DNA of 64,000 bases from Candidatus Omnitrophota bacterium. Its GTDB lineage: Bacteria; Omnitrophota; Gorgyraeia; Velamenicoccales; JABMQK01. The notes under the pieces are model-generated. The model ran no database searches. It was not told the DNA's origin and saw only the letters and a list, made by a program, of their open reading frames with translations. The translations under genes were made by a program, and so were the position numbers. This document shows positions 3,942 through 62,495 of the stretch, piece after piece. The DNA lies in the NCBI GenBank assembly GCA_028711115.1, contig JAQTSV010000001.1:1030032-1094031 (forward strand), written 5' to 3'. Numbering within the stretch: the stretch's first letter is position 1; the number at the start of each line of letters is the position of its first letter.

Positions 3942-4673
3942 TTAACAATAATTCTTCTTTAACCAAGTGAATATAAAGATTAGGAAAGTTGTCCCAATCA
4001 AAATGAAAACTGCAATACCTGGTTCTATTTTGATGCCTTGTGTAAAAAGTGTTGCTAAACCCGCAAAAGGATTGTCCTCGAGCTCTTTCATTGATGTATT
4101 GATTGTATAATGCAACAAATCATTCGCTAAAAATAAGCTAATCATAAGCAAAACCGAAGAAACACAAGCAATTAAGGACGCAACCAGGGTAAGTAGGTAT
4201 TTTTTAAGTATTAACGATAACAAAATAACTAGTAATAAAATATGTGCAATATCTCCCGCAACTATTCCAATGTTAATAAATCTATACATGGGTCTCTCTT
4301 TTAAGATTTCCGGCTCGCCTGCCCTATCTATTACTGTCTCTTTAAAATTTTTAACATCTAACTTTGGTTTAGTATCAATTTCGGTGGACGCTATTGATTT
4401 TTTATTTTCAGTGGCCGACCTTGCCATTTCAAAAGACGATATTGCCGACTTTACCATTTCAAAAGCCGATATTGATTGAGTTCCAACGATTGGGGCTTGG
4501 AATTTACTCAAGGGCAAAAAGATAGAAAAGATGGCAATTGCTATTAAGACATAAGATAAAAATTGCAGAATCATACCTAAACTCAATTCTTTCTTATTTA
4601 AATCTTTACCACAATGTTTGCATCTAATTGCTTCATCCTGTATTTCCTCTGCACAATAATGACATTTTTTCAT
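3942..4673 (-). CDS. zinc-ribbon membrane protein, function unknown
   Basis: 243 aa. N-terminal CxxC...CxxC ([19 protein letters not shown]) followed by several hydrophobic helices. Confidence 0.7.
4417..4476 (-). repeat. 30-nt tandem duplication (2 copies, 25/30 identical) inside the zinc-ribbon gene
   Basis: gaccttgccatttcaaaagacgatattgcc / gactttaccatttcaaaagccgatattgat. Encodes [10 protein letters not shown] / [10 protein letters not shown]. Confidence 0.8.
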
Positions 4674-12213: not shown

Positions 12214-13494
12214 TTAAAGCTCCTCTCTGTGAATTACTACAGTGTTCTTTTTTACCATTGCCAATTTATCAATCGCCTCCAGCGCGAGCCTTATGTCTTT
12301 TTCTCTGACATCGTGGGTCAGCATTATCACCGGCACCACTTTTGCCCTGCTTCTTTCTTTCTGAGTAACCGAGGCAATACTTATTTTACGTTTAGCCAGA
12401 ATTCCGGAAATCTTGGCCAATACGCCGGGCTTATCTATCACCATAAAACGGATATAATACTTCGACCGTATATCATCCATTCTCTTAATTTTTTTGATTA
12501 ATCCCTTCTGCGAAAAATCAATGGGCCTTTTCTGGCTGGCGATATCGATTAAATCGCTTATGACTGCAGAGGCCGTGGGTAATTGCCCTGCGCCCTGGCC
12601 GAAAAATAACAAATCGCCTACCAATTCACCTTTGATATAAACCGCGTTAAAAATTCCGTTTACGCTTGCCAAAGGATGTTCTTCGGAAATCAAAGTAGGA
12701 TGTACCCTGACTTCCAGAATATCTCCGTCTGACTTCTTGGCGATGGCTAATAACTTGATAACCAATCCCAGCTCTTTGGCGTATTTTATGTCCAGAGGAG
12801 AAATTTCTTCAATTCCTTTTACATAGATATCTTTCTGCAGAATATATTTACCGAATGCCAGAAAAGCCAAAATAGACAGCTTGTGTGCGGAATCAAAACC
12901 TTTTATATCTAAAGAAGGATTGCGTTCGGCAAATCCTCTTTTTTTGGCTTCTGACAATGCCTCAAAGAAAGAACAATCCTGTTCTGCCATTTCGGAAAGA
13001 ATGTAATTGCTGGTGCCGTTTATAATGCCCACCACGCTTTCTATGCGGTCAGCAACCAGTCCTTCCGTAAGAGATTTAATAATAGGTATCCCGCCGCAAA
13101 CAGAAGCCTCAAAACGAAGCTGTGATTTATTTTTGTGGGCCACTGCCAGCATAGAGGACAAATCCTGTGCCAATAACGCCTTGTTCGCGGTAATTACACT
13201 CTTACCGGATTCCAAAGAACGCAAAATTATGTCTTTGGCCGGATTTATCCCGCCGATAAGCTCGATTACCACATCGATATCTTTGCTGTTAACTATATCC
13301 TGATATTTGGTGGTAAAAATCCTGGGGCTTATATTCAGCTTACTCCTCAACTTGGGATTCTTATCACAAATCTTTGCCATATTAAAATCGACATCGTATT
13401 TTTTCTTGAAAGACTTTCTCTTTTGTGAAAGAATCTTTAAAACACCACTGCCGATCGTGCCCAGGCCGATTAATCCTATGTTTATCTTTTTCAT
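12214..13494 (-). CDS. hom: homoserine dehydrogenase
   Basis: 426 aa. GLGTIGSG NAD(P) motif, catalytic domain, and a C-terminal ACT domain. Confidence 0.93.
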   Translation of the reverse strand: MKKINIGLIGLGTIGSGVLKILSQKRKSFKKKYDVDFNMAKICDKNPKLRSKLNISPRIFTTKYQDIVNSKDIDVVIELIGGINPAKDIILRSLESGKSVITANKALLAQDLSSMLAVAHKNKSQLRFEASVCGGIPIIKSLTEGLVADRIESVVGIINGTSNYILSEMAEQDCSFFEALSEAKKRGFAERNPSLDIKGFDSAHKLSILAFLAFGKYILQKDIYVKGIEEISPLDIKYAKELGLVIKLLAIAKKSDGDILEVRVHPTLISEEHPLASVNGIFNAVYIKGELVGDLLFFGQGAGQLPTASAVISDLIDIASQKRPIDFSQKGLIKKIKRMDDIRSKYYIRFMVIDKPGVLAKISGILAKRKISIASVTQKERSRAKVVPVIMLTHDVREKDIRLALEAIDKLAMVKKNTVVIHREEL

Positions 13495-13853
13495 TTTGTT
13501 TCCTTTTTTGAAAAATAATTTACCGTGTTCCTGACGAATTCCTTGGATTGGTCGTCCATATAATTAAACACCAGCCTTGTTTCATAAATCAGATCGTGCG
13601 CAATCTCTTTTGATTCTAAAACCTTTCCTAATAATCTAATGTAACTGGAAATAAAAGGCAATTTAATCTCTATGGCTAAAATTGTGCCGTTATCGAATGC
13701 GCAGTTTGTTGTCAGTAGCATTCCCCCTTCGCTGATATTCTTCGTCTGGGAAATATCTATGTTGTCGGGGTCGCCATAAATCCTATAATTGACTACAAAG
13801 TTTTTATGGACACGCGGATTCCTTCTTCTCTCCGGACCGCCATAAGATACCAA
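13491..13853 (-). CDS. small PilZ-domain protein (c-di-GMP receptor type)
   Basis: RRRNPR (RxxxR) and NISEGGM (N-x-S-x-x-G) motifs. Proposed TTG start at 13853 with AAGGGGG 5 nt upstream. The longer track ORF runs through tRNA-Pro. The stop overlaps the hom ATG (ATGA). Confidence 0.7.
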   Translation of the reverse strand: MVSYGGPERRRNPRVHKNFVVNYRIYGDPDNIDISQTKNISEGGMLLTTNCAFDNGTILAIEIKLPFISSYIRLLGKVLESKEIAHDLIYETRLVFNYMDDQSKEFVRNTVNYFSKKETK

Positions 13854-13942
13854 GATTGCCCCCTTGTTCAAAAGACAATAACTTATGGAACTTAACGAAT
13901 ACAAGTTGCTGCCTGAATTATTCCCGCTGCAAAAATTTATTT

Positions 13943-14021
13943 TGGTCGGGGCGGTCGGACTCGAACCGACGACCCCTTGAACCCCATTCAAGTGCGCTGA
14001 TCCAAACTGCGCCACGCCCCG
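13943..14021 (-). tRNA. tRNA-Pro (anticodon GGG), CCA encoded
   Basis: rc reads CGGGGCGTGGCGCAGTTTGGATCAGCGCACTTGAATGGGGTTCAAGGGGTCGTCGGTTCGAGTCCGACCGCCCCGACCA. Cloverleaf folded by hand; anticodon loop AUGGGGU. Confidence 0.9.
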
Positions 14022-18495: not shown

Positions 18496-18566
18496 AGCGG
18501 GAGAAGGGAATCGAACCCTCATATATAGCTTGGAAGGCTATTGTTCTACCATTGAACTACTCCCGC
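18496..18566 (-). tRNA. tRNA-Gly (anticodon TCC), no encoded CCA
   Basis: rc reads GCGGGAGTAGTTCAATGGTAGAACAATAGCCTTCCAAGCTATATATGAGGGTTCGATTCCCTTCTCCCGCT. Anticodon loop CUUCCAA. Confidence 0.9.
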
Positions 18567-18819
18567 ATAAATTTATCTATTGTAGCTTGTCCCGCATGCG
18601 CACTTCGTGCTTTGCGGGATCCCGCCTCGTCACTTAAACTATAAGGCGGGAGAAGGCAAATGCTCTACCAACTGCCCGCCAAAAATCTTGGCGGGTCCGC
18701 TTAATTTTTGGCGGAGATGTCCGCCGATTTTTTGTGGCGGAAGCTACACCCACATAATTTTATTTTATTCACTTTATAGCCTGCCGCCTATGAAGAAGTA
18801 AATTTTTGAAAATTTAAAA
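18567..18819. other. GC-rich multi-hairpin spacer with a tRNA-like remnant between tRNA-Tyr and tRNA-Gly
   Basis: At least 6 GGCGG/CCGCC-type hairpins lie in an otherwise AT-rich context. Bases 18645-18680 (rc GGCGGGCAGTTGGTAGAGCATTTGCCTTCTCCCGCC) carry the D-arm 14-mer CAGTTGGTAGAGCA shared with tRNA-Thr. Confidence 0.4.
18710..18733 (+). terminator. intrinsic-terminator-like hairpin in plus orientation
   Basis: GGCGGA-GATG-TCCGCC followed by GATTTTTT. No annotated plus-strand gene lies upstream. Confidence 0.45.
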
Positions 18820-18902
18820 TGGACAGGAGAGGATTTGAACCTCTGAAGCACAAGTGCAGCAGATTTACAGTCTGCCCCCTTTGGCCACTTGGGTACCTGT
18901 CC
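18820..18902 (-). tRNA. tRNA-Tyr (anticodon GTA), long variable arm
   Basis: rc reads GGACAGGTACCCAAGTGGCCAAAGGGGGCAGACTGTAAATCTGCTGCACTTGTGCTTCAGAGGTTCAAATCCTCTCCTGTCCA. Confidence 0.9.
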
Positions 18903-18916
18903 AAAAATTTTTACAG

Positions 18917-21971: not shown

Positions 21972-22739
21972 CTATGTCTCCTGCCGCAACAGGTTTCTTA
22001 AAGTCCGCGACAATTCTTCCCTGGAGATATCGCTGATGATATGACCCTCTGTAGCCAAAGATATATTGCCTGTTTCCTCTGAAACAATAATTACCACAGC
22101 ATCTGTGTCTTCGGATAAACCCAGCGCTGCCCTGTGCCGCGTTCCATGAGTACGGCTTAACCGCGCATTGTCATCTATGAGAGGAAAAAGGCAACATGCC
22201 GCGGCAATGCGTCCGCCGACAATTACCACGCCGCCATCATGCAGAGGGCTGGAAGGGAAAAATATCGCTTCTAAAATTTCCTCGGAAACCATGGAATCCA
22301 TCTGTACGCCGCTATCAATATAGACCTTCAGAGAATCATCTCTTTCCAGAGCAATCAATGCCCCTATCTTTTTCTCAGAGAAATTCACAGCCGCCTTTTC
22401 CAGCTGCCTGATTAATATTTCTAATTCCTCTGCCTTTAAAAGAGGTGAGGTCAAGAATACCTGCCTGGCACCCAGGCGGGCAAGGCCCTGCCTTAATTCC
22501 GGCTGAAAAATAATAAATATTCCGATTATAGAAATGGCGAATATCTTGGTCATAATCCAATCCAGGGTATGGAATCCCAGTTTCTGGAAAATGAAAAACA
22601 TCACCACCAAGATAATCAGGCCTCTCAATACATTTCTGGCGCGCGTCCTCTCAAAGAAAACCAGCAAATTATAAATAGCATACCACAAAATTGCTATCTC
22701 TAAATAAGGCCTCCAAAGTAATAAGATTTCTTTAATCAT
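21972..22739 (-). CDS. cdaA: diadenylate cyclase (c-di-AMP synthase), membrane-anchored
   Basis: 255 aa. Three N-terminal TM helices plus a DAC domain (DGGVVI, HGTRHRAALG, IIVSEETG). Confidence 0.9.
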   Translation of the reverse strand: MIKEILLLWRPYLEIAILWYAIYNLLVFFERTRARNVLRGLIILVVMFFIFQKLGFHTLDWIMTKIFAISIIGIFIIFQPELRQGLARLGARQVFLTSPLLKAEELEILIRQLEKAAVNFSEKKIGALIALERDDSLKVYIDSGVQMDSMVSEEILEAIFFPSSPLHDGGVVIVGGRIAAACCLFPLIDDNARLSRTHGTRHRAALGLSEDTDAVVIIVSEETGNISLATEGHIISDISREELSRTLRNLLRQET

Positions 22740-30132: not shown

Positions 30133-30558
30133 TTATAATAAGTATCCATATTGGGAATAACCGCCTCCCATACTTATGGCGCCATTTTCATCGATATATA
30201 TGCTATAGCCAGTAGCGTTACCTAAATAATATTCGACGTCTGTTCTCCTAGTAGCTACTCCCACTAATCCTCCTATCGCTGCTACTCTACCCCAATATCG
30301 AAAATATTTCCCATAATTCGTTCCATAATTATCTATCGTGACATCCAACGGAGATATGTCTGCTCCACAATAAGCCCCATATTGTGCATAATATGTGAGT
30401 TGTGCAGAACGTATTGTGGAAAGTATATTTTTTGCCTCTGCTACTCTGGATTTCTCAGCAATTCTCTGATATCTTGGTAAAGCAATAGATGCCAAAATTC
30501 CAATTACAATAATAACTATAATTAATTCAATCAAAGTAAAACCATCTCTGTAAAACAT
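30133..30558 (-). CDS. type IV pilin-like protein (prepilin N-terminal methylation motif), Tyr-rich
   Basis: MFYRDG|FTLIELIIVIIVIGILASIALP with Glu5. 19 of 135 mature residues are aromatic (16 Tyr), counted by hand. Confidence 0.85.
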   Translation of the reverse strand: MFYRDGFTLIELIIVIIVIGILASIALPRYQRIAEKSRVAEAKNILSTIRSAQLTYYAQYGAYCGADISPLDVTIDNYGTNYGKYFRYWGRVAAIGGLVGVATRRTDVEYYLGNATGYSIYIDENGAISMGGGYSQYGYLL

Positions 30559-35958: not shown

Positions 35959-36465
35959 TTAACCTATCTTTCCTGCGGCGATCCAGTCGTCTATTCTCTT
36001 CCTCTCGAATTTCCATTCTTCACCTTCTTTGAAACCAGGGATTTTCCCCGAATTCGCCCACTGCACAATCGTGTCATGATCCAGTTCCAGGTGTTTTGCC
36101 AGATCATCCGCATTGAGAATATCATGCATCATAATACAGGTACCCTGGAATATAGCTCCGTCGGAGATAACCAATCGCGGCGTCTTTATATTGCCTTCCA
36201 CTACAGCATGATTTAACAATTCGATCCTTGAATCTGATTCAATGTCGCCCTTCACCCTGCCGGAGATACTGATATTCTCGCATTTTATATGAGCATCTAC
36301 GAATGCTGTATCGCTGATTGTGAGATTTCCCTTAACTTCCAACCTGCCTTCGAATTTACCGTTTATTTTTAGATTCACCGGATCCTTAAATACCAAACTT
36401 CCCTGCATAGCTGCATCAACGTCGATGGTGTGTTCCTCGCGATCTTTCTTATTTCTTAATCCCAT
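35959..36465 (-). CDS. bactofilin fused to a C-terminal excisionase-type HTH
   Basis: 168 aa. Bactofilin beta-helix repeats (INGKFEGRLEVKGNLTISDTAFVDAHI...GRVKGDI...VVEGNIKT) followed by DLAKHLELDHDTIVQWANSGKIPGFKEGEEWKF. GGAGGTGG lies 5 nt before the ATG. Confidence 0.75.
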   Translation of the reverse strand: MGLRNKKDREEHTIDVDAAMQGSLVFKDPVNLKINGKFEGRLEVKGNLTISDTAFVDAHIKCENISISGRVKGDIESDSRIELLNHAVVEGNIKTPRLVISDGAIFQGTCIMMHDILNADDLAKHLELDHDTIVQWANSGKIPGFKEGEEWKFERKRIDDWIAAGKIG

Positions 36466-43399: not shown

Positions 43400-44110
43400 T
43401 CAAATGAGGGAGAAATTTCTGTCGATAAATTCCAGCAGTTTTTTCTGGACAGGAGCCGGGATATTGTAGAATTCTACCCCCATTCCGGGATGGATGTGTT
43501 GTTGCACTTGCTTGTCAGACAACCATACGACTCTGGCATCAAGTTTTATTTCTTCAGAAGAAGGTGAAAGTTTAATTATTAAAACAACCTCATCGCCTAA
43601 TTTGAATTGGCTGCAACCATATATATAAGCGCCTAAGGCGCTCAAATCCAGGAGGTCTGTCTTAAAACAGACTTTTTCTTTATCGTATTTACCTTTTACC
43701 TCTATTTTAATATCAATGGGCAGGCGCTTGAATCTGCGGCGCAATTGCAGTTTCTGAATATTTTCTATGACTCTGTCTTCCTTGAAACTATTTATCGCCA
43801 ACTCCTCCTCAACATAGATATCCATGGCCTTGTCCAGCCCTGTAATTGAAAACAGGTTCCTAAGGTGTGCCGGAATATTTATAAACTTCATCCTGCCGTT
43901 ATTATTTGTCACATCTTTATAAGCGATTACCACTACGGAAATACCCATATAATCGATAAAATCAACATTCTCGAAGTTGCAAAGTATATCGCGATAGCCG
44001 TCGTGCAGGCACTCGCCTATAACTTCGATAAAATTAGCGGCATTCACATCAATGCGGCCGCTTAAATCCAGTATCACAATTCCGTTCTTGGTCCTGCCCT
44101 TAATTTCCAT
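43400..44110 (-). CDS. STAS (anti-sigma-antagonist-like) domain fused to a PilZ domain
   Basis: 236 aa. The N-terminal STAS pattern is ILDLSGRIDV...VDFIDYMGISVVV...FSITGLD. The C-terminal part carries RRRFKR (RxxxR) and DLSALGA (D-x-S-x-x-G). Confidence 0.75.
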   Translation of the reverse strand: MEIKGRTKNGIVILDLSGRIDVNAANFIEVIGECLHDGYRDILCNFENVDFIDYMGISVVVIAYKDVTNNNGRMKFINIPAHLRNLFSITGLDKAMDIYVEEELAINSFKEDRVIENIQKLQLRRRFKRLPIDIKIEVKGKYDKEKVCFKTDLLDLSALGAYIYGCSQFKLGDEVVLIIKLSPSSEEIKLDARVVWLSDKQVQQHIHPGMGVEFYNIPAPVQKKLLEFIDRNFSLI

Positions 44111-60558: not shown

Positions 60559-61605
60559 CTATTTCTTTTTCTGTTCCGCTTCTACTACAACAAGACTATC
60601 AAGAATGCCTTTTTCTATGGCGCTGGCAACCTTGGGATTTGACTTTAAAAAATCAATTGCCGTATCTCTGCCCTGTCCTAACTTTTCGCTGCCAAAAGAA
60701 AGCCATGTCCCGCTCTTCTCAATTACGCCTCTATTTACCGCTGTATCCACAATACTGCCTAATCTGGAGATTCCTTCGGAATGTAGAATCTCGAATTCTG
60801 CCTCTTTGAATGGCGGAGCAACTTTATTCTTCACTACGCGGGCCCTTACCCTTGCACCAAAAACCTGTTCTGCTGATTTGAGATTAGCTATTTTACGCAA
60901 ATCTATCCTTACTGAAGAATAGAATTTTAAAGCCCTGCCGCCGGGCGTAGTCTCAGGATTTCCAAACATCACTCCGATTTTTTCCCTGATCTGATTAATA
61001 AATATCACGCACGTCCTGGACTTGCTAATTGCAGCTGTAAGTTTTCTTAAAGCCTGTGACATAAGCCTCGCCTGCAGACCGATATGGCTATCGCCCATTT
61101 CGCCTTCAATTTCCGCGCGCGGTGTAAGCGCAGCCACTGAATCTATAACGATTAAATCTACGGCATTGGAACGTACCAATGTCTCGGCTATCTCCAGGGC
61201 CTGCTCTCCTGTGTCCGGTTGAGAAATCAGCATCTCCACCAAATTCACGCCTATCTTTTCCGCATATACTGAATCAAAGGCATGCTCTGCATCAATAAAG
61301 GCAGCTACACCGCCTTTTGTCTGCGTCTGTTTAATAATGCTTAAGGTGAGCGTGGTTTTGCCTGAAGCCTCTGGCCCGAAAATCTCCACTACTCTGCCGC
61401 GGGGAACCCCACCGATTCCTAAGGCAATATCCAAAGAAATTGCGCCTGTAGGAATCGACTCCACATTCATCTTTGGCTCACCGCCAAGTTTCATTATAGA
61501 ACCTTTTCCGAATTGCTTTTCAATCTGTGCCAAAGCCAATTCCAGTGTTTTCTTACGGTTAGAAACAATATCTTCCTTACTTTTGGTTTCCTTCTGTGTA
61601 CTCAT
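60559..61605 (-). CDS. recA: recombinase RecA
   Basis: 348 aa. GPEASGKTT Walker A. GGAGGT lies before the ATG. Confidence 0.98.
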
Positions 61606-61869: not shown

Positions 61870-61898
61870 TTGAAATTCCTTTAAAAATATGTTATGGT
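61870..61898 (+). promoter_or_regulatory. sigma70-like promoter for the riboswitch-like leader
   Basis: TTGAAA (61870-75), 17-nt spacer, then TGT-TATGGT (extended -10-like, 61890-98). Confidence 0.5.
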
Positions 61899-61934
61899 TT
61901 ATGTAGAACAAGAAAGCGCTCTTTTAGATGTTTT

Positions 61935-62060
61935 TAGCAAAAGGTAAACTAACCCGAAAGGGGTCCTGAAGCAATTCAGGAATCGAAAGATTAGGGCACA
62001 AAGCCGCGAACCTAAGTCTTTGTAGCATAAGAAGATAAGGTTGTCGGGCTGCCGTAGTCC
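61935..62060 (+). promoter_or_regulatory. candidate c-di-GMP-I (GEMM-I)-like riboswitch aptamer with an inserted two-hairpin module
   Basis: AAAAGGUAAAC..., P1 CUAA|AUC-GAAA-GAUUAG, GGGCACAAAGCC, CCUAAG...UAAGG tetraloop-receptor-like pair, CGGGCUGCCG. Compared from memory with Vc2: GGGCAAACCAUUCGAAAGAGUGGGACGCAAAGCC..CCUAAA. Confidence 0.55.
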
Positions 62061-62093
62061 CAAAGTGTTAAATCCGGGATTTCGTCAAAGTGT

Positions 62094-62123
62094 AAAAACC
62101 CATTCTTTCCGATGGGTTTTTTT
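62094..62123 (+). terminator. intrinsic terminator (expression platform of the leader)
   Basis: AAAACCCAT-tctttccg-ATGGGTTTT followed by a T run, 37 nt before the ATG at 62160. Confidence 0.75.
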
Positions 62124-62159
62124 GTTGACAGCTACCCCGGAAGAACAAGGAGGTAGCAG

Positions 62160-62495
62160 ATGAAAGGAAGAAGGGCATTTAGAGTGATCCTTACAATAGC
62201 AATATTAATTCTAGGTATAATTCTTGTAAAGGCTCTGTTTGCCGATGGCTCTTTCACTGCTGCCGCAACTTGTTATATGCCTCAGTATGTAACACTGGCT
62301 AATGGAGAAAAGGTATTAGCTGATAGCATTAATAATGGTAATAACCAGAATAACCAAATAAATGTTCCAGAAGTAAATAAGGAGGAAATCGAAGAAGATG
62401 CTATAGCAGAAAATGCATCTGCCCTAATCCAGCAACAGGAAGAAGTAGTTTTAGAAGATGGCTTAGGTTTAATTACAACGGTGTTCGCAAGATAA
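62160..62495 (+). CDS. small secreted/anchored hypothetical protein (N/Q- and E-rich)
   Basis: 111 aa and the only plus-strand gene. AAGGAGG lies 7 nt before the ATG. Signal-peptide-like MKGRRAFRVILTIAILILGIILVKALFA|DG. Confidence 0.65.
   Translation: MKGRRAFRVILTIAILILGIILVKALFADGSFTAAATCYMPQYVTLANGEKVLADSINNGNNQNNQINVPEVNKEEIEEDAIAENASALIQQQEEVVLEDGLGLITTVFAR

Follow-up and report, generated by a model that had tools for sequence, protein, structure and literature searches.

The leader of a gene for a 111-aa signal-peptide protein, located within a 64,000-nucleotide (nt) stretch of contig JAQTSV010000001.1 of a Candidatus Omnitrophota bacterium (the whole of that stretch is called the window below), most probably contains a type-1 class-I cyclic di-GMP (c-di-GMP) riboswitch whose tetraloop hairpin is elaborated into a four-way junction; we put the probability of this reading at about 80%. 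Two additional hairpins lie in one strand of the stem that bears the canonical GAAA tetraloop, and these extra arms are a conserved, covarying structure. The window RNA is a lineage-specific structural variant of a known sensor, the new part being the covarying four-way junction in P1b. Weinberg 2007 names the tetraloop-bearing hairpin P1, and structural papers call it P1b or P2; in this text P1 and P1b are used for it and P2 for the hairpin that carries the tetraloop receptor.

Identity of the aptamer

The Rfam c-di-GMP-I family RF01051 matches positions 61933–62056 (plus strand) with 55.8 bits (gathering score 35, E-value 3.3e-08 for the whole window). The Infernal alignment covers the complete model, positions 1–87, and RF01051 itself is the best-scoring member of its Rfam clan for this aptamer. 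The original prediction, made from the letters of the sequence, had called the leader GEMM-I-like and proposed a search with this family as a check; the score above the gathering threshold confirms the assignment. In the original description of the family, the first hairpin is a highly conserved element made of 2-bp and 6-bp stems around a conserved 3-nt internal loop and closed by a terminal GNRA tetraloop, with an AAA linker and, when the loop of P1 is GAAA, a tetraloop receptor in P2 (PMC1950547). In the structures of the Vc2 aptamer, G20 and C92 touch the ligand, the GAAA loop stacks on the receptor and C44 pairs with G83 (PMC11705072); A47 is named as the third pocket nucleotide of Vc2 in the study of the Bc1 riboswitch (PMC11218506).

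According to the Infernal alignment, the equivalents of these residues in the window are 61943 (G20), 62000 (A47) and 62052 (C92) for the pocket, and 61997 (C44) and 62043 (G83) for the inter-helix pair. The 2-bp stem consists of G61944–C61999 and U61945–A61998 (equivalents of G21–C46 and C22–G45), the latter being a C–G to U–A change that is compensatory relative to the family consensus, and the 3-nt internal loop reads GGC where the consensus is GAC. P1 thus has its 2-bp and 6-bp stems around a 3-nt loop, though the six paired positions are split by a branch. The receptor halves in P2, CCUAAG (62011–62016) and UAAGG (62036–62040), form a receptor of the 11-nt type with U9A and with A8 retained (numbering of PMC11571812), so the GAAA-capped P1 and the 11-nt-type receptor that had been read from the sequence are both present. 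The distal stem of P2 covaries (UCUU/AAGA versus CCUC/GGAG). The closing helix P1a (see below) apart, all of the defining features of type 1 that can be judged from sequence, namely score, P1 stems, GNRA loop, AAA linker, receptor and pocket, are found, and on this basis the element is a genuine member of the class-I c-di-GMP riboswitch family. Because the pocket positions are unchanged, the predicted ligand is c-di-GMP.

A four-way junction in the tetraloop hairpin

Infernal places 34 nt at the P1 loop where the model has 4, which corresponds to an insertion of 30 nt. The original prediction of a 29-nt insertion is correct for the segment 61953–61981, and a single ambiguous A at 61952 brings it to 30. 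Its transcription of the leader was right overall, apart from a duplicated C ('AAAC-CUAA', the real sequence being AAACUAA) and an extra G in 'GAUUAG-GGGCAC' (the real sequence being GAUUAGGGCAC); the actual sequence is AAAAGGUAAAC-UA-A-[CCCGAAAGGG]-G-[UCCUGAAGCAAUUCAGGA]-AUC-GAAA-GAU-UAG-GGCAC-AAAGCC. As had been proposed, the extra nucleotides turn P1 into a four-way junction in which the GAAA-capped arm and its receptor are kept: a basal helix A is followed by two inserted hairpins, B and C, and by an apical hairpin D that carries the canonical tetraloop (Table 1). Both inserted hairpins end in GNRA loops in the window (GAAA and GCAA), and to this extent the prediction holds; in the relatives the GNRA loops are not conserved, the loops of B and C being UUAAAA, AAAAAA, GAACC or AACAAA. 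Because the identity of these loops varies among relatives, constraint seems to bear only on the stems and on the third, GAAA-capped arm.

Folding and covariation both support the branch. When each hit of the searches described below is folded on its own, three adjacent hairpins appear in almost every case, the last of them a short GNRA-capped stem. In an alignment of 16 sequences built with MAFFT and fitted to no structure (A1), 95.1% of the cells are paired and 13 of the 22 pairs are changed on both sides; no shuffle out of 500 attains these values and slid controls give 34–49%. RNAalifold recovers hairpins B, C and D de novo from this alignment. A covariance model of the branched P1 built from A1 (R1) matches the window at 51 bits (E-value ~3e-11) and the leaders of three related contigs (L017, L019 and L039) at 51–59 bits. 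After alignment of 28 sequences, window included, to R1 (A3), 95.4% of the cells are paired and 19 of the 22 pairs are changed on both sides (0 of 500 shuffles, slid controls at most 48%), with every pair of the three hairpins covarying (B 8/8, C 6/6, D 4/4); A1 is the cleaner test, since the fitting of A3 to the model biases it in the model's favour. In L039, three pairs of hairpin C are changed on both sides (UCUCGC/GCGAGA). The pairings for which a comparison of homologous leaders had been suggested are therefore conserved with abundant compensatory change.

The geometry of the branch is equally regular. In each of the 27 branched sequences (26 relatives and the window, L029 being excluded as unbranched) the GNRA loop and the GRC internal loop are separated by exactly 6 nt, all of them paired; helix A and hairpin D add up to 6 bp in 27 of 27, with a split of 2+4, 3+3 or 4+2 between them. 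In the window, the 3′ strand of P1b is an uninterrupted run of 6 nt. Since this strand is fully paired and shared by A and D, only the 5′ strand of P1b is interrupted by the branch, and since the GNRA loop is always exactly six paired nucleotides away from the core, A and D would together rebuild the canonical 6-bp P1b. Hairpins B and C, which jointly measure 30 nt, are inserted in the 5′ strand of the 6-bp stem, and we infer that the basal helix A (~3 bp) and the apical GAAA-capped helix D (~3 bp) can stack coaxially. Stacked in this way, they would restore the canonical 6-bp helix and keep the tetraloop at the usual distance for docking on the P2 receptor. The insert measures 30 to 54 nt among the branched aptamers, and in the group upstream of GH1 glycosidase genes the junction is perfect, with zero unpaired junction nucleotides.

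Relatives and their gene contexts

Relatives were sought with the DNA pattern AAGGYAAAC-gap-GRCRCAAAGCC-N4-8-CTAAR, which demands an enlarged P1 along with the core motifs of GEMM-I but not the pairings of the branch. A scan of one genome per species (185,579 species) gave 8 matches, 5 of them with the same architecture, of which 4 are Omnitrophota metagenome-assembled genomes (MAGs) and 1 is labelled Planctomycetales; the scan of metagenomes gave 31 loci. Once chance hits, tandem artefacts and decoys had been removed, 27 distinct further sequences matched the branched-domain model, and 26 of these are branched. The rejected loci fall into several kinds. L007 and L016 look like chance matches in probable coding sequence, and L009 and L028 lack the fold. 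In L014 and L031/L032 the aptamer is canonical and a decoy GGUAAAC lies upstream of it. L029 has a canonical 6-bp hairpin, its extra hairpins lying upstream of a second GGUAAAC. In L010 the pattern spanned two tandem aptamers: at this locus (4101–4275, minus strand, from an Oscillospiraceae MAG) at least two canonical c-di-GMP-I aptamers, and apparently a third, follow one another directly, a tandem arrangement already known for this class. L038 (836–925, minus strand) was left out of the branched set as a different, three-way arrangement in which one long AU-rich hairpin comes after the GAAA-capped stem CUC-GAAA-GAG; its tetraloop is not at 6 nt from the core.

Of 20 branched loci tested, 17 reach the gathering threshold of RF01051, so that an annotation of the branched RNAs as c-di-GMP-I is already to be expected. 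For some, L005 and L006 among them, Infernal with this model puts the core inside the insert.

Branched aptamers occur in several gene contexts, namely in GH1 leaders, in small-protein leaders such as that of the window, and in others before unrelated genes. The larger group is found 144–315 nt upstream of a GH1 glycosidase (PF00232, E-value 3.6e-85); among 14 leaders of this platform type (L003–L006, L011, L012, L024–L027, L034, L035, L037 and L041; for example L005:6545–6800), 10 are demonstrably upstream of a GH1 beta-glucosidase gene. Together with L029, L030 and L033, these 14 leaders (17 in all) possess a perfect flank helix of 11–12 bp with an energy of −17 to −20 kcal/mol, in which GCCGAUAAAGG, made up of the 5′ flank and the core AAAGG, pairs with CCUUUAUCGGC, 20–32 nt beyond the aptamer. 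L030 and L033 show compensatory change in this helix, which would sequester G20 and G21. Most of the 17 leaders then carry a CCCAAC..GUUGGG terminator, and at least four loci (L004, L005, L011 and L029) have an extended −10-like motif, TGYTATAAT, just 3′ of it. Through this arrangement of flank helix, terminator and −10-like motif, the GH1-type platform differs from that of the window.

Canonical unbranched copies are found on the same contigs as branched ones in L013 and L015, and the lineage can therefore make, and keeps, both forms. A distal extension of P2 by ~40–50 nt is seen in L003, L006, L008, L012, L025, L026, L027, L034 and L041, where P2 and the 3′ segment together measure 77–87 nt versus ~38–43 nt in the others. 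As this extension joins the branched P1b, both aptamer hairpins are elaborated in part of the lineage.

Expression platform and switching

The platform was compared in four orthologous leaders, those of the window, L017, L019 and L039. The promoter claimed in the original prediction (TTGAAA-17-TATGGT) was found, with its TG extension, by a consensus scan and is kept in the three other leaders; its elements CCTTGAAAT and AAATATGTTA are invariant in all four, and transcription is predicted to start near 61905. Counted from there, the leader is ~255 nt long and not ~230 nt as had been estimated. On the plus strand, promoter, aptamer, terminator, ribosome-binding site and open reading frame (ORF) follow each other in the order of a 5′ regulatory configuration, and the order is the same in L017, L019 and L039.

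Three hairpins follow the aptamer (Table 1). The first, X, has an energy of −6.7 to −12.2 kcal/mol in the four leaders and forms when the aptamer is locked; the G–U versus A–U differences between leaders are consistent with its pairing. The second is the intrinsic terminator T, which precedes a U7 tract in the window; its energy is −11.2 kcal/mol there and ranges from −11.2 to −16.9 kcal/mol over the four leaders. A simple terminator scan of the window did not flag 62094–62123, though the terminator that had been proposed there is borne out by folding and by compensatory A–U to G–C changes in L039. The third hairpin would sequester the Shine-Dalgarno (SD) sequence and has energies between −9.7 and −19.1 kcal/mol in the four leaders, its flanks varying between them (CUACCUCC/GGAGGUAG versus GCCCUCC/GGAGGC).

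RNAalifold on the four leaders also finds an alternative fold composed of two helices. In helix P0, the UCUUUU element (61920–61925) pairs with the core AAAAGG (61939–61944) in all four leaders; P0 can, we infer, sequester the equivalents of G20 and G21. Helix Z pairs GAUUAGGGCA (61989–61998) with UGCCGUAGUC (62050–62059) at −4.5 to −11.3 kcal/mol and takes up the 3′ strand of P1b, the pocket cytosines and the 5′ strand of X. Since P0 and Z consume the aptamer core and the 5′ strand of X, two mutually exclusive conformations are encoded. Fold 1 would consist of aptamer, X and T, and fold 2 of P0 over the core together with Z. To assign the ON and OFF states, full-length and truncated transcripts were folded with the aptamer excluded from pairing or not. 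Both X and T form with the aptamer locked in all four leaders, which suggests that c-di-GMP favours termination: the ligand would stabilise fold 1, X and T would form, and transcription would halt before the gene (OFF).

The terminator loop sequence UUCUUU is invariant in the four leaders, even where the stem covaries. In the window, UCUUUC (62104–62109) is perfectly complementary to GAAAGA (61985–61990), that is, to the tetraloop and the 3′ strand of hairpin D, and the 5′ UCUUUU element is similar. This complementarity may be due to chance in AT-rich sequence or may reflect a long-range contact.

Alternative explanations

Several points weigh against the reading of the leader as a branched class-I riboswitch that terminates transcription upon ligand binding. 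Besides the bias of A3 mentioned above, part of the core conservation seen in the hits is built in, because the search pattern demanded the core motifs. No convincing 5′/3′ flank pairing that could serve as the closing helix P1a was found in the window, L017, L019 or L039, and a search for long-range 5′/3′ helices in this subgroup found none; hairpin X begins where the 3′ strand of P1a would lie. No covariation is seen in P0 or in Z across the four leaders, and Z is strong (−11 kcal/mol) in just two of them, the others giving −4.5 and −7.4 kcal/mol. Terminator T forms in every thermodynamic model, with the aptamer locked or not, and the sole antiterminator candidate, which pairs the 3′ strand of X with the 5′ strand of T, reaches −2.4 to −3.6 kcal/mol versus −11 to −17 kcal/mol for T. 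As T is predicted in both states and the antiterminator is weak, it is the topology that carries the OFF assignment. On these models we give an OFF switch an even chance; an ON switch appears clearly less probable, and a logic that is neither of the two less probable again. The same architecture could indeed operate with the opposite logic, c-di-GMP promoting read-through or acting mainly on translation through the SD hairpin, and we regard this as possible but doubtful. The weakness of the antiterminator beside a terminator predicted in both states speaks for it, as does the conserved anti-SD/SD hairpin downstream; moreover, characterised class-I switches go both ways, and Bc1 combines control of transcription and translation (PMC11218506). 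However, no pairing was found through which a ligand-bound aptamer could disrupt T or the SD hairpin, and locking the aptamer leaves X and T formed in all four leaders.

Another question is whether arms B and C matter at all. The element may be a working c-di-GMP-I riboswitch in which they are a tolerated passenger, merely compact and without a function of their own, and which might descend from an inserted GC-rich hairpin repeat; this we consider a serious possibility, falling short of even odds. The unconserved loops of B and C and the variable length of the insert agree with it, and the branch point shifts, which would be expected were the geometry of A and D all that counts. The unbranched Rfam model still scores branched sequences above threshold, which implies an unaltered core, and GC-rich hairpins of the same stem type (UCCGCC...GGCGGA) form a local array elsewhere in the window. 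On the other hand, the covarying branch is kept across diverged sequences and in at least two unrelated gene contexts (GH1 and small-protein) as well as in others, and this persistence favours retention of the branch rather than decay. The coexistence of branched and canonical copies on the L013 and L015 contigs and the perfect junction of the GH1 group also argue against a mere passenger. At the other extreme, the branched P1b could define a distinct subclass, with B and C as a scaffold that tunes folding, affinity or kinetics or offers a surface to a second factor, with X replacing P1a and a permuted aptamer topology in the subgroup of the window; this appears improbable.

A changed ligand, either 3′3′-cGAMP as in GEMM-Ib or another dinucleotide, is the least probable of these alternatives, and we hold it for very unlikely. 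In its favour are a CdaA/DAC protein encoded at 21972–22739 and the internal loop GGC in place of the consensus GAC. Yet both GGC and GAC are present among close relatives, the best clan member is RF01051, and the equivalents of G20, A47 and C92 are canonical, for which reason altered specificity was set aside. GEMM-Ib cGAMP riboswitches have A at position 20, and c-di-AMP riboswitches have a fold unrelated to that of c-di-GMP-I. The reading that we prefer is that of a type-1 class-I c-di-GMP riboswitch with a four-way junction in its tetraloop hairpin.

The locus and other features of the window

Table 1. Features of the riboswitch locus, in coordinates of the window.
Feature	Position	Strand	Remarks
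recA	60559–61605	−	Pfam RecA; divergent from the 111-aa ORF
Promoter	61870–61898	+	−35 TTGAAA (61870–75), TG extension (61890–91), −10 TATGGT (61893–98)
UCUUUU leader element	61920–61925	+	Invariant in four leaders otherwise variable there
c-di-GMP-I aptamer	61933–62056	+	RF01051 match
Helix A, 5′ strand CUA	61949–61951	+	Pairs with UAG 61992–61994; base of the split P1b; read from sequence
Hairpin B, CCC-GAAA-GGG	61953–61962	+	Inserted; minimum free energy fold
Hairpin C, UCCUGAA-GCAA-UUCAGGA	61964–61981	+	Inserted; minimum free energy fold
Hairpin D, AUC-GAAA-GAU	61982–61991	+	Canonical GAAA tetraloop at 61985–61988
Helix A, 3′ strand UAG, internal loop GGC, AC	61992–61999	+	Infernal alignment; AC pairs with G61944 and U61945
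AAA linker (62000–62002) and P2	62000–62050	+	Infernal alignment
Hairpin X, CGUAGUCCC...GGGAUUUCG	62053–62084	+	First nucleotide of the 5′ strand is the C 3′-adjacent to the C92 equivalent
Intrinsic terminator T, AAAAACCCAUU-CUUUCC-GAUGGGUUUUU and U tract	62094–62123	+	Folding, conservation
Putative SD-sequestering hairpin, anti-SD GCUACCCC with SD region GGAGGUAGC	62131–62157	+	Downstream of the terminator
Regulated gene (predicted), 111-aa protein	62160–62495	+	ORF list; signal peptide

The 111-aa ORF (62160–62495) sits between the divergent recA gene and a convergent gene for a 951-aa protein with SdrD_B and CarboxypepD_reg domains. It is the only convincing plus-strand gene of the window, as the original prediction had it, and the AAGGAGG followed by ATG that had been read in front of it corresponds to an SD sequence at 62147–62153 and a start codon at 62160. 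A Pfam search with the 111-aa protein gave no match, and in a word-indexed protein search the query itself was the sole match; the homologues were instead obtained through the RNA pattern and synteny. Syntenic homologues with 24–34% identity are encoded on the three related contigs L017, L019 and L039, and together with the window protein they have in common a signal peptide, an invariant CYMP motif, which in the 111-aa protein lies within a conserved F-x3-CYMP-x2-V, and the C-terminus T-V-(C/F)-A-(K/R). The order recA, promoter, aptamer, terminator and small protein is common to all four loci, and a convergent protein of 968–973 aa is present in L019 and L039, the relatives whose contigs reach that far.

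Both of the PilZ proteins that had been reported in the window were confirmed, at 13491–14015 (minus strand) and at 43400–44110, the second of them also containing a STAS domain; c-di-GMP signalling in the host is thus plausible. The first PilZ ORF overlaps at its 5′ end a tRNA called at 13946–14021 (minus strand), and its real start is therefore probably further downstream. The protein at 21972–22739 (minus strand) is a CdaA-type diadenylate cyclase (DAC domain with E-value 3.4e-40, and the CdaA N-terminal domain), so that the organism probably also uses c-di-AMP. A type IV pilin-like protein with an N-terminal methylation motif (30133–30558, minus strand) and a bactofilin fused to an HTH domain (35959–36465, minus strand) are also encoded.

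Between tRNA-Gly (18496–18566, minus strand) and tRNA-Tyr (18819–18903, minus strand), positions 18590–18745 contain five consecutive GC-rich hairpins with the stems UCCCGC..GCGGGA, UCCCGCC..GGCGGGA, CCCGCC..GGCGGG, UCCGC..GGCGGA and UCCGCC..GGCGGA. The fold z-score of this array is −5.4, and CCGCC-N-GGCGG is absent from the rest of the window. Weak R1 matches at 18656–18756 (21.9 bits) were attributed to this array and not to an aptamer, the model matching it weakly because its stems resemble B and C of the GH1-leader riboswitches. The array could be a processing structure of the tRNA operon or a repeat element.

Relation to known systems and significance

The closest known relative is the Vc2 riboswitch of V. 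cholerae (RF01051). The window RNA has in common with it the two-hairpin aptamer with 2-bp stem, 3-nt internal loop and 6-bp stem, the docking of a GAAA tetraloop on its receptor, the AAA linker, the pocket formed by G20, A47 and C92, and the C44–G83 pair; with c-di-GMP-I type 1 in general it shares the 5′ regulatory position ahead of an intrinsic terminator. Unlike in Vc2, the tetraloop stem is broken in its 5′ strand by two covarying hairpins, which makes a four-way junction, no closing helix of the flanks was found in the subgroup of the window, where X starts right after the C92 equivalent, and the receptor is of the 11-nt type with U9A instead of the Vc2 type. The 3′3′-cGAMP riboswitches of GEMM-Ib (Geobacter) share the overall fold and the Rfam clan, but they have A20, whereas the window RNA keeps G and has a branched P1b. 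In Bc1 of Bacillus thuringiensis a type-1 aptamer is likewise followed by two hairpins before the ribosome-binding site, this site can be trapped in structure, and the logic goes beyond a simple overlap of terminator and P2, an indication that the behaviour of long class-I platforms is not always obvious (PMC11218506). Both hairpins of Bc1 have U tracts and act as dual terminators, whereas X of the window has none and its aptamer is branched. By analogy only, the natural four-way junction of the hairpin ribozyme also holds elements that must dock together; there RNA and function are unrelated, and in the window the junction lies inside one of the docking partners. Full-text searches with partial journal coverage, a weak negative, found no description of a branched P1 or P1b in c-di-GMP-I.

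In other riboswitch classes, helices often carry peripheral elaborations. Class-I c-di-GMP riboswitches serve as a model for RNA–ligand recognition and for tetraloop–receptor docking, and a natural four-way junction in the tetraloop stem shows how much peripheral elaboration the c-di-GMP-I fold tolerates. The branched and unbranched copies on the same contigs offer a ready comparison for the effect of the junction on docking and on the response to the ligand. The gain for annotation is modest but practical, since Rfam already finds most of the branched RNAs and misaligns some. In Omnitrophota, a phylum that is almost wholly uncultured, the finding points to control by c-di-GMP of a conserved small secreted protein encoded beside recA, and of a GH1 glycosidase.

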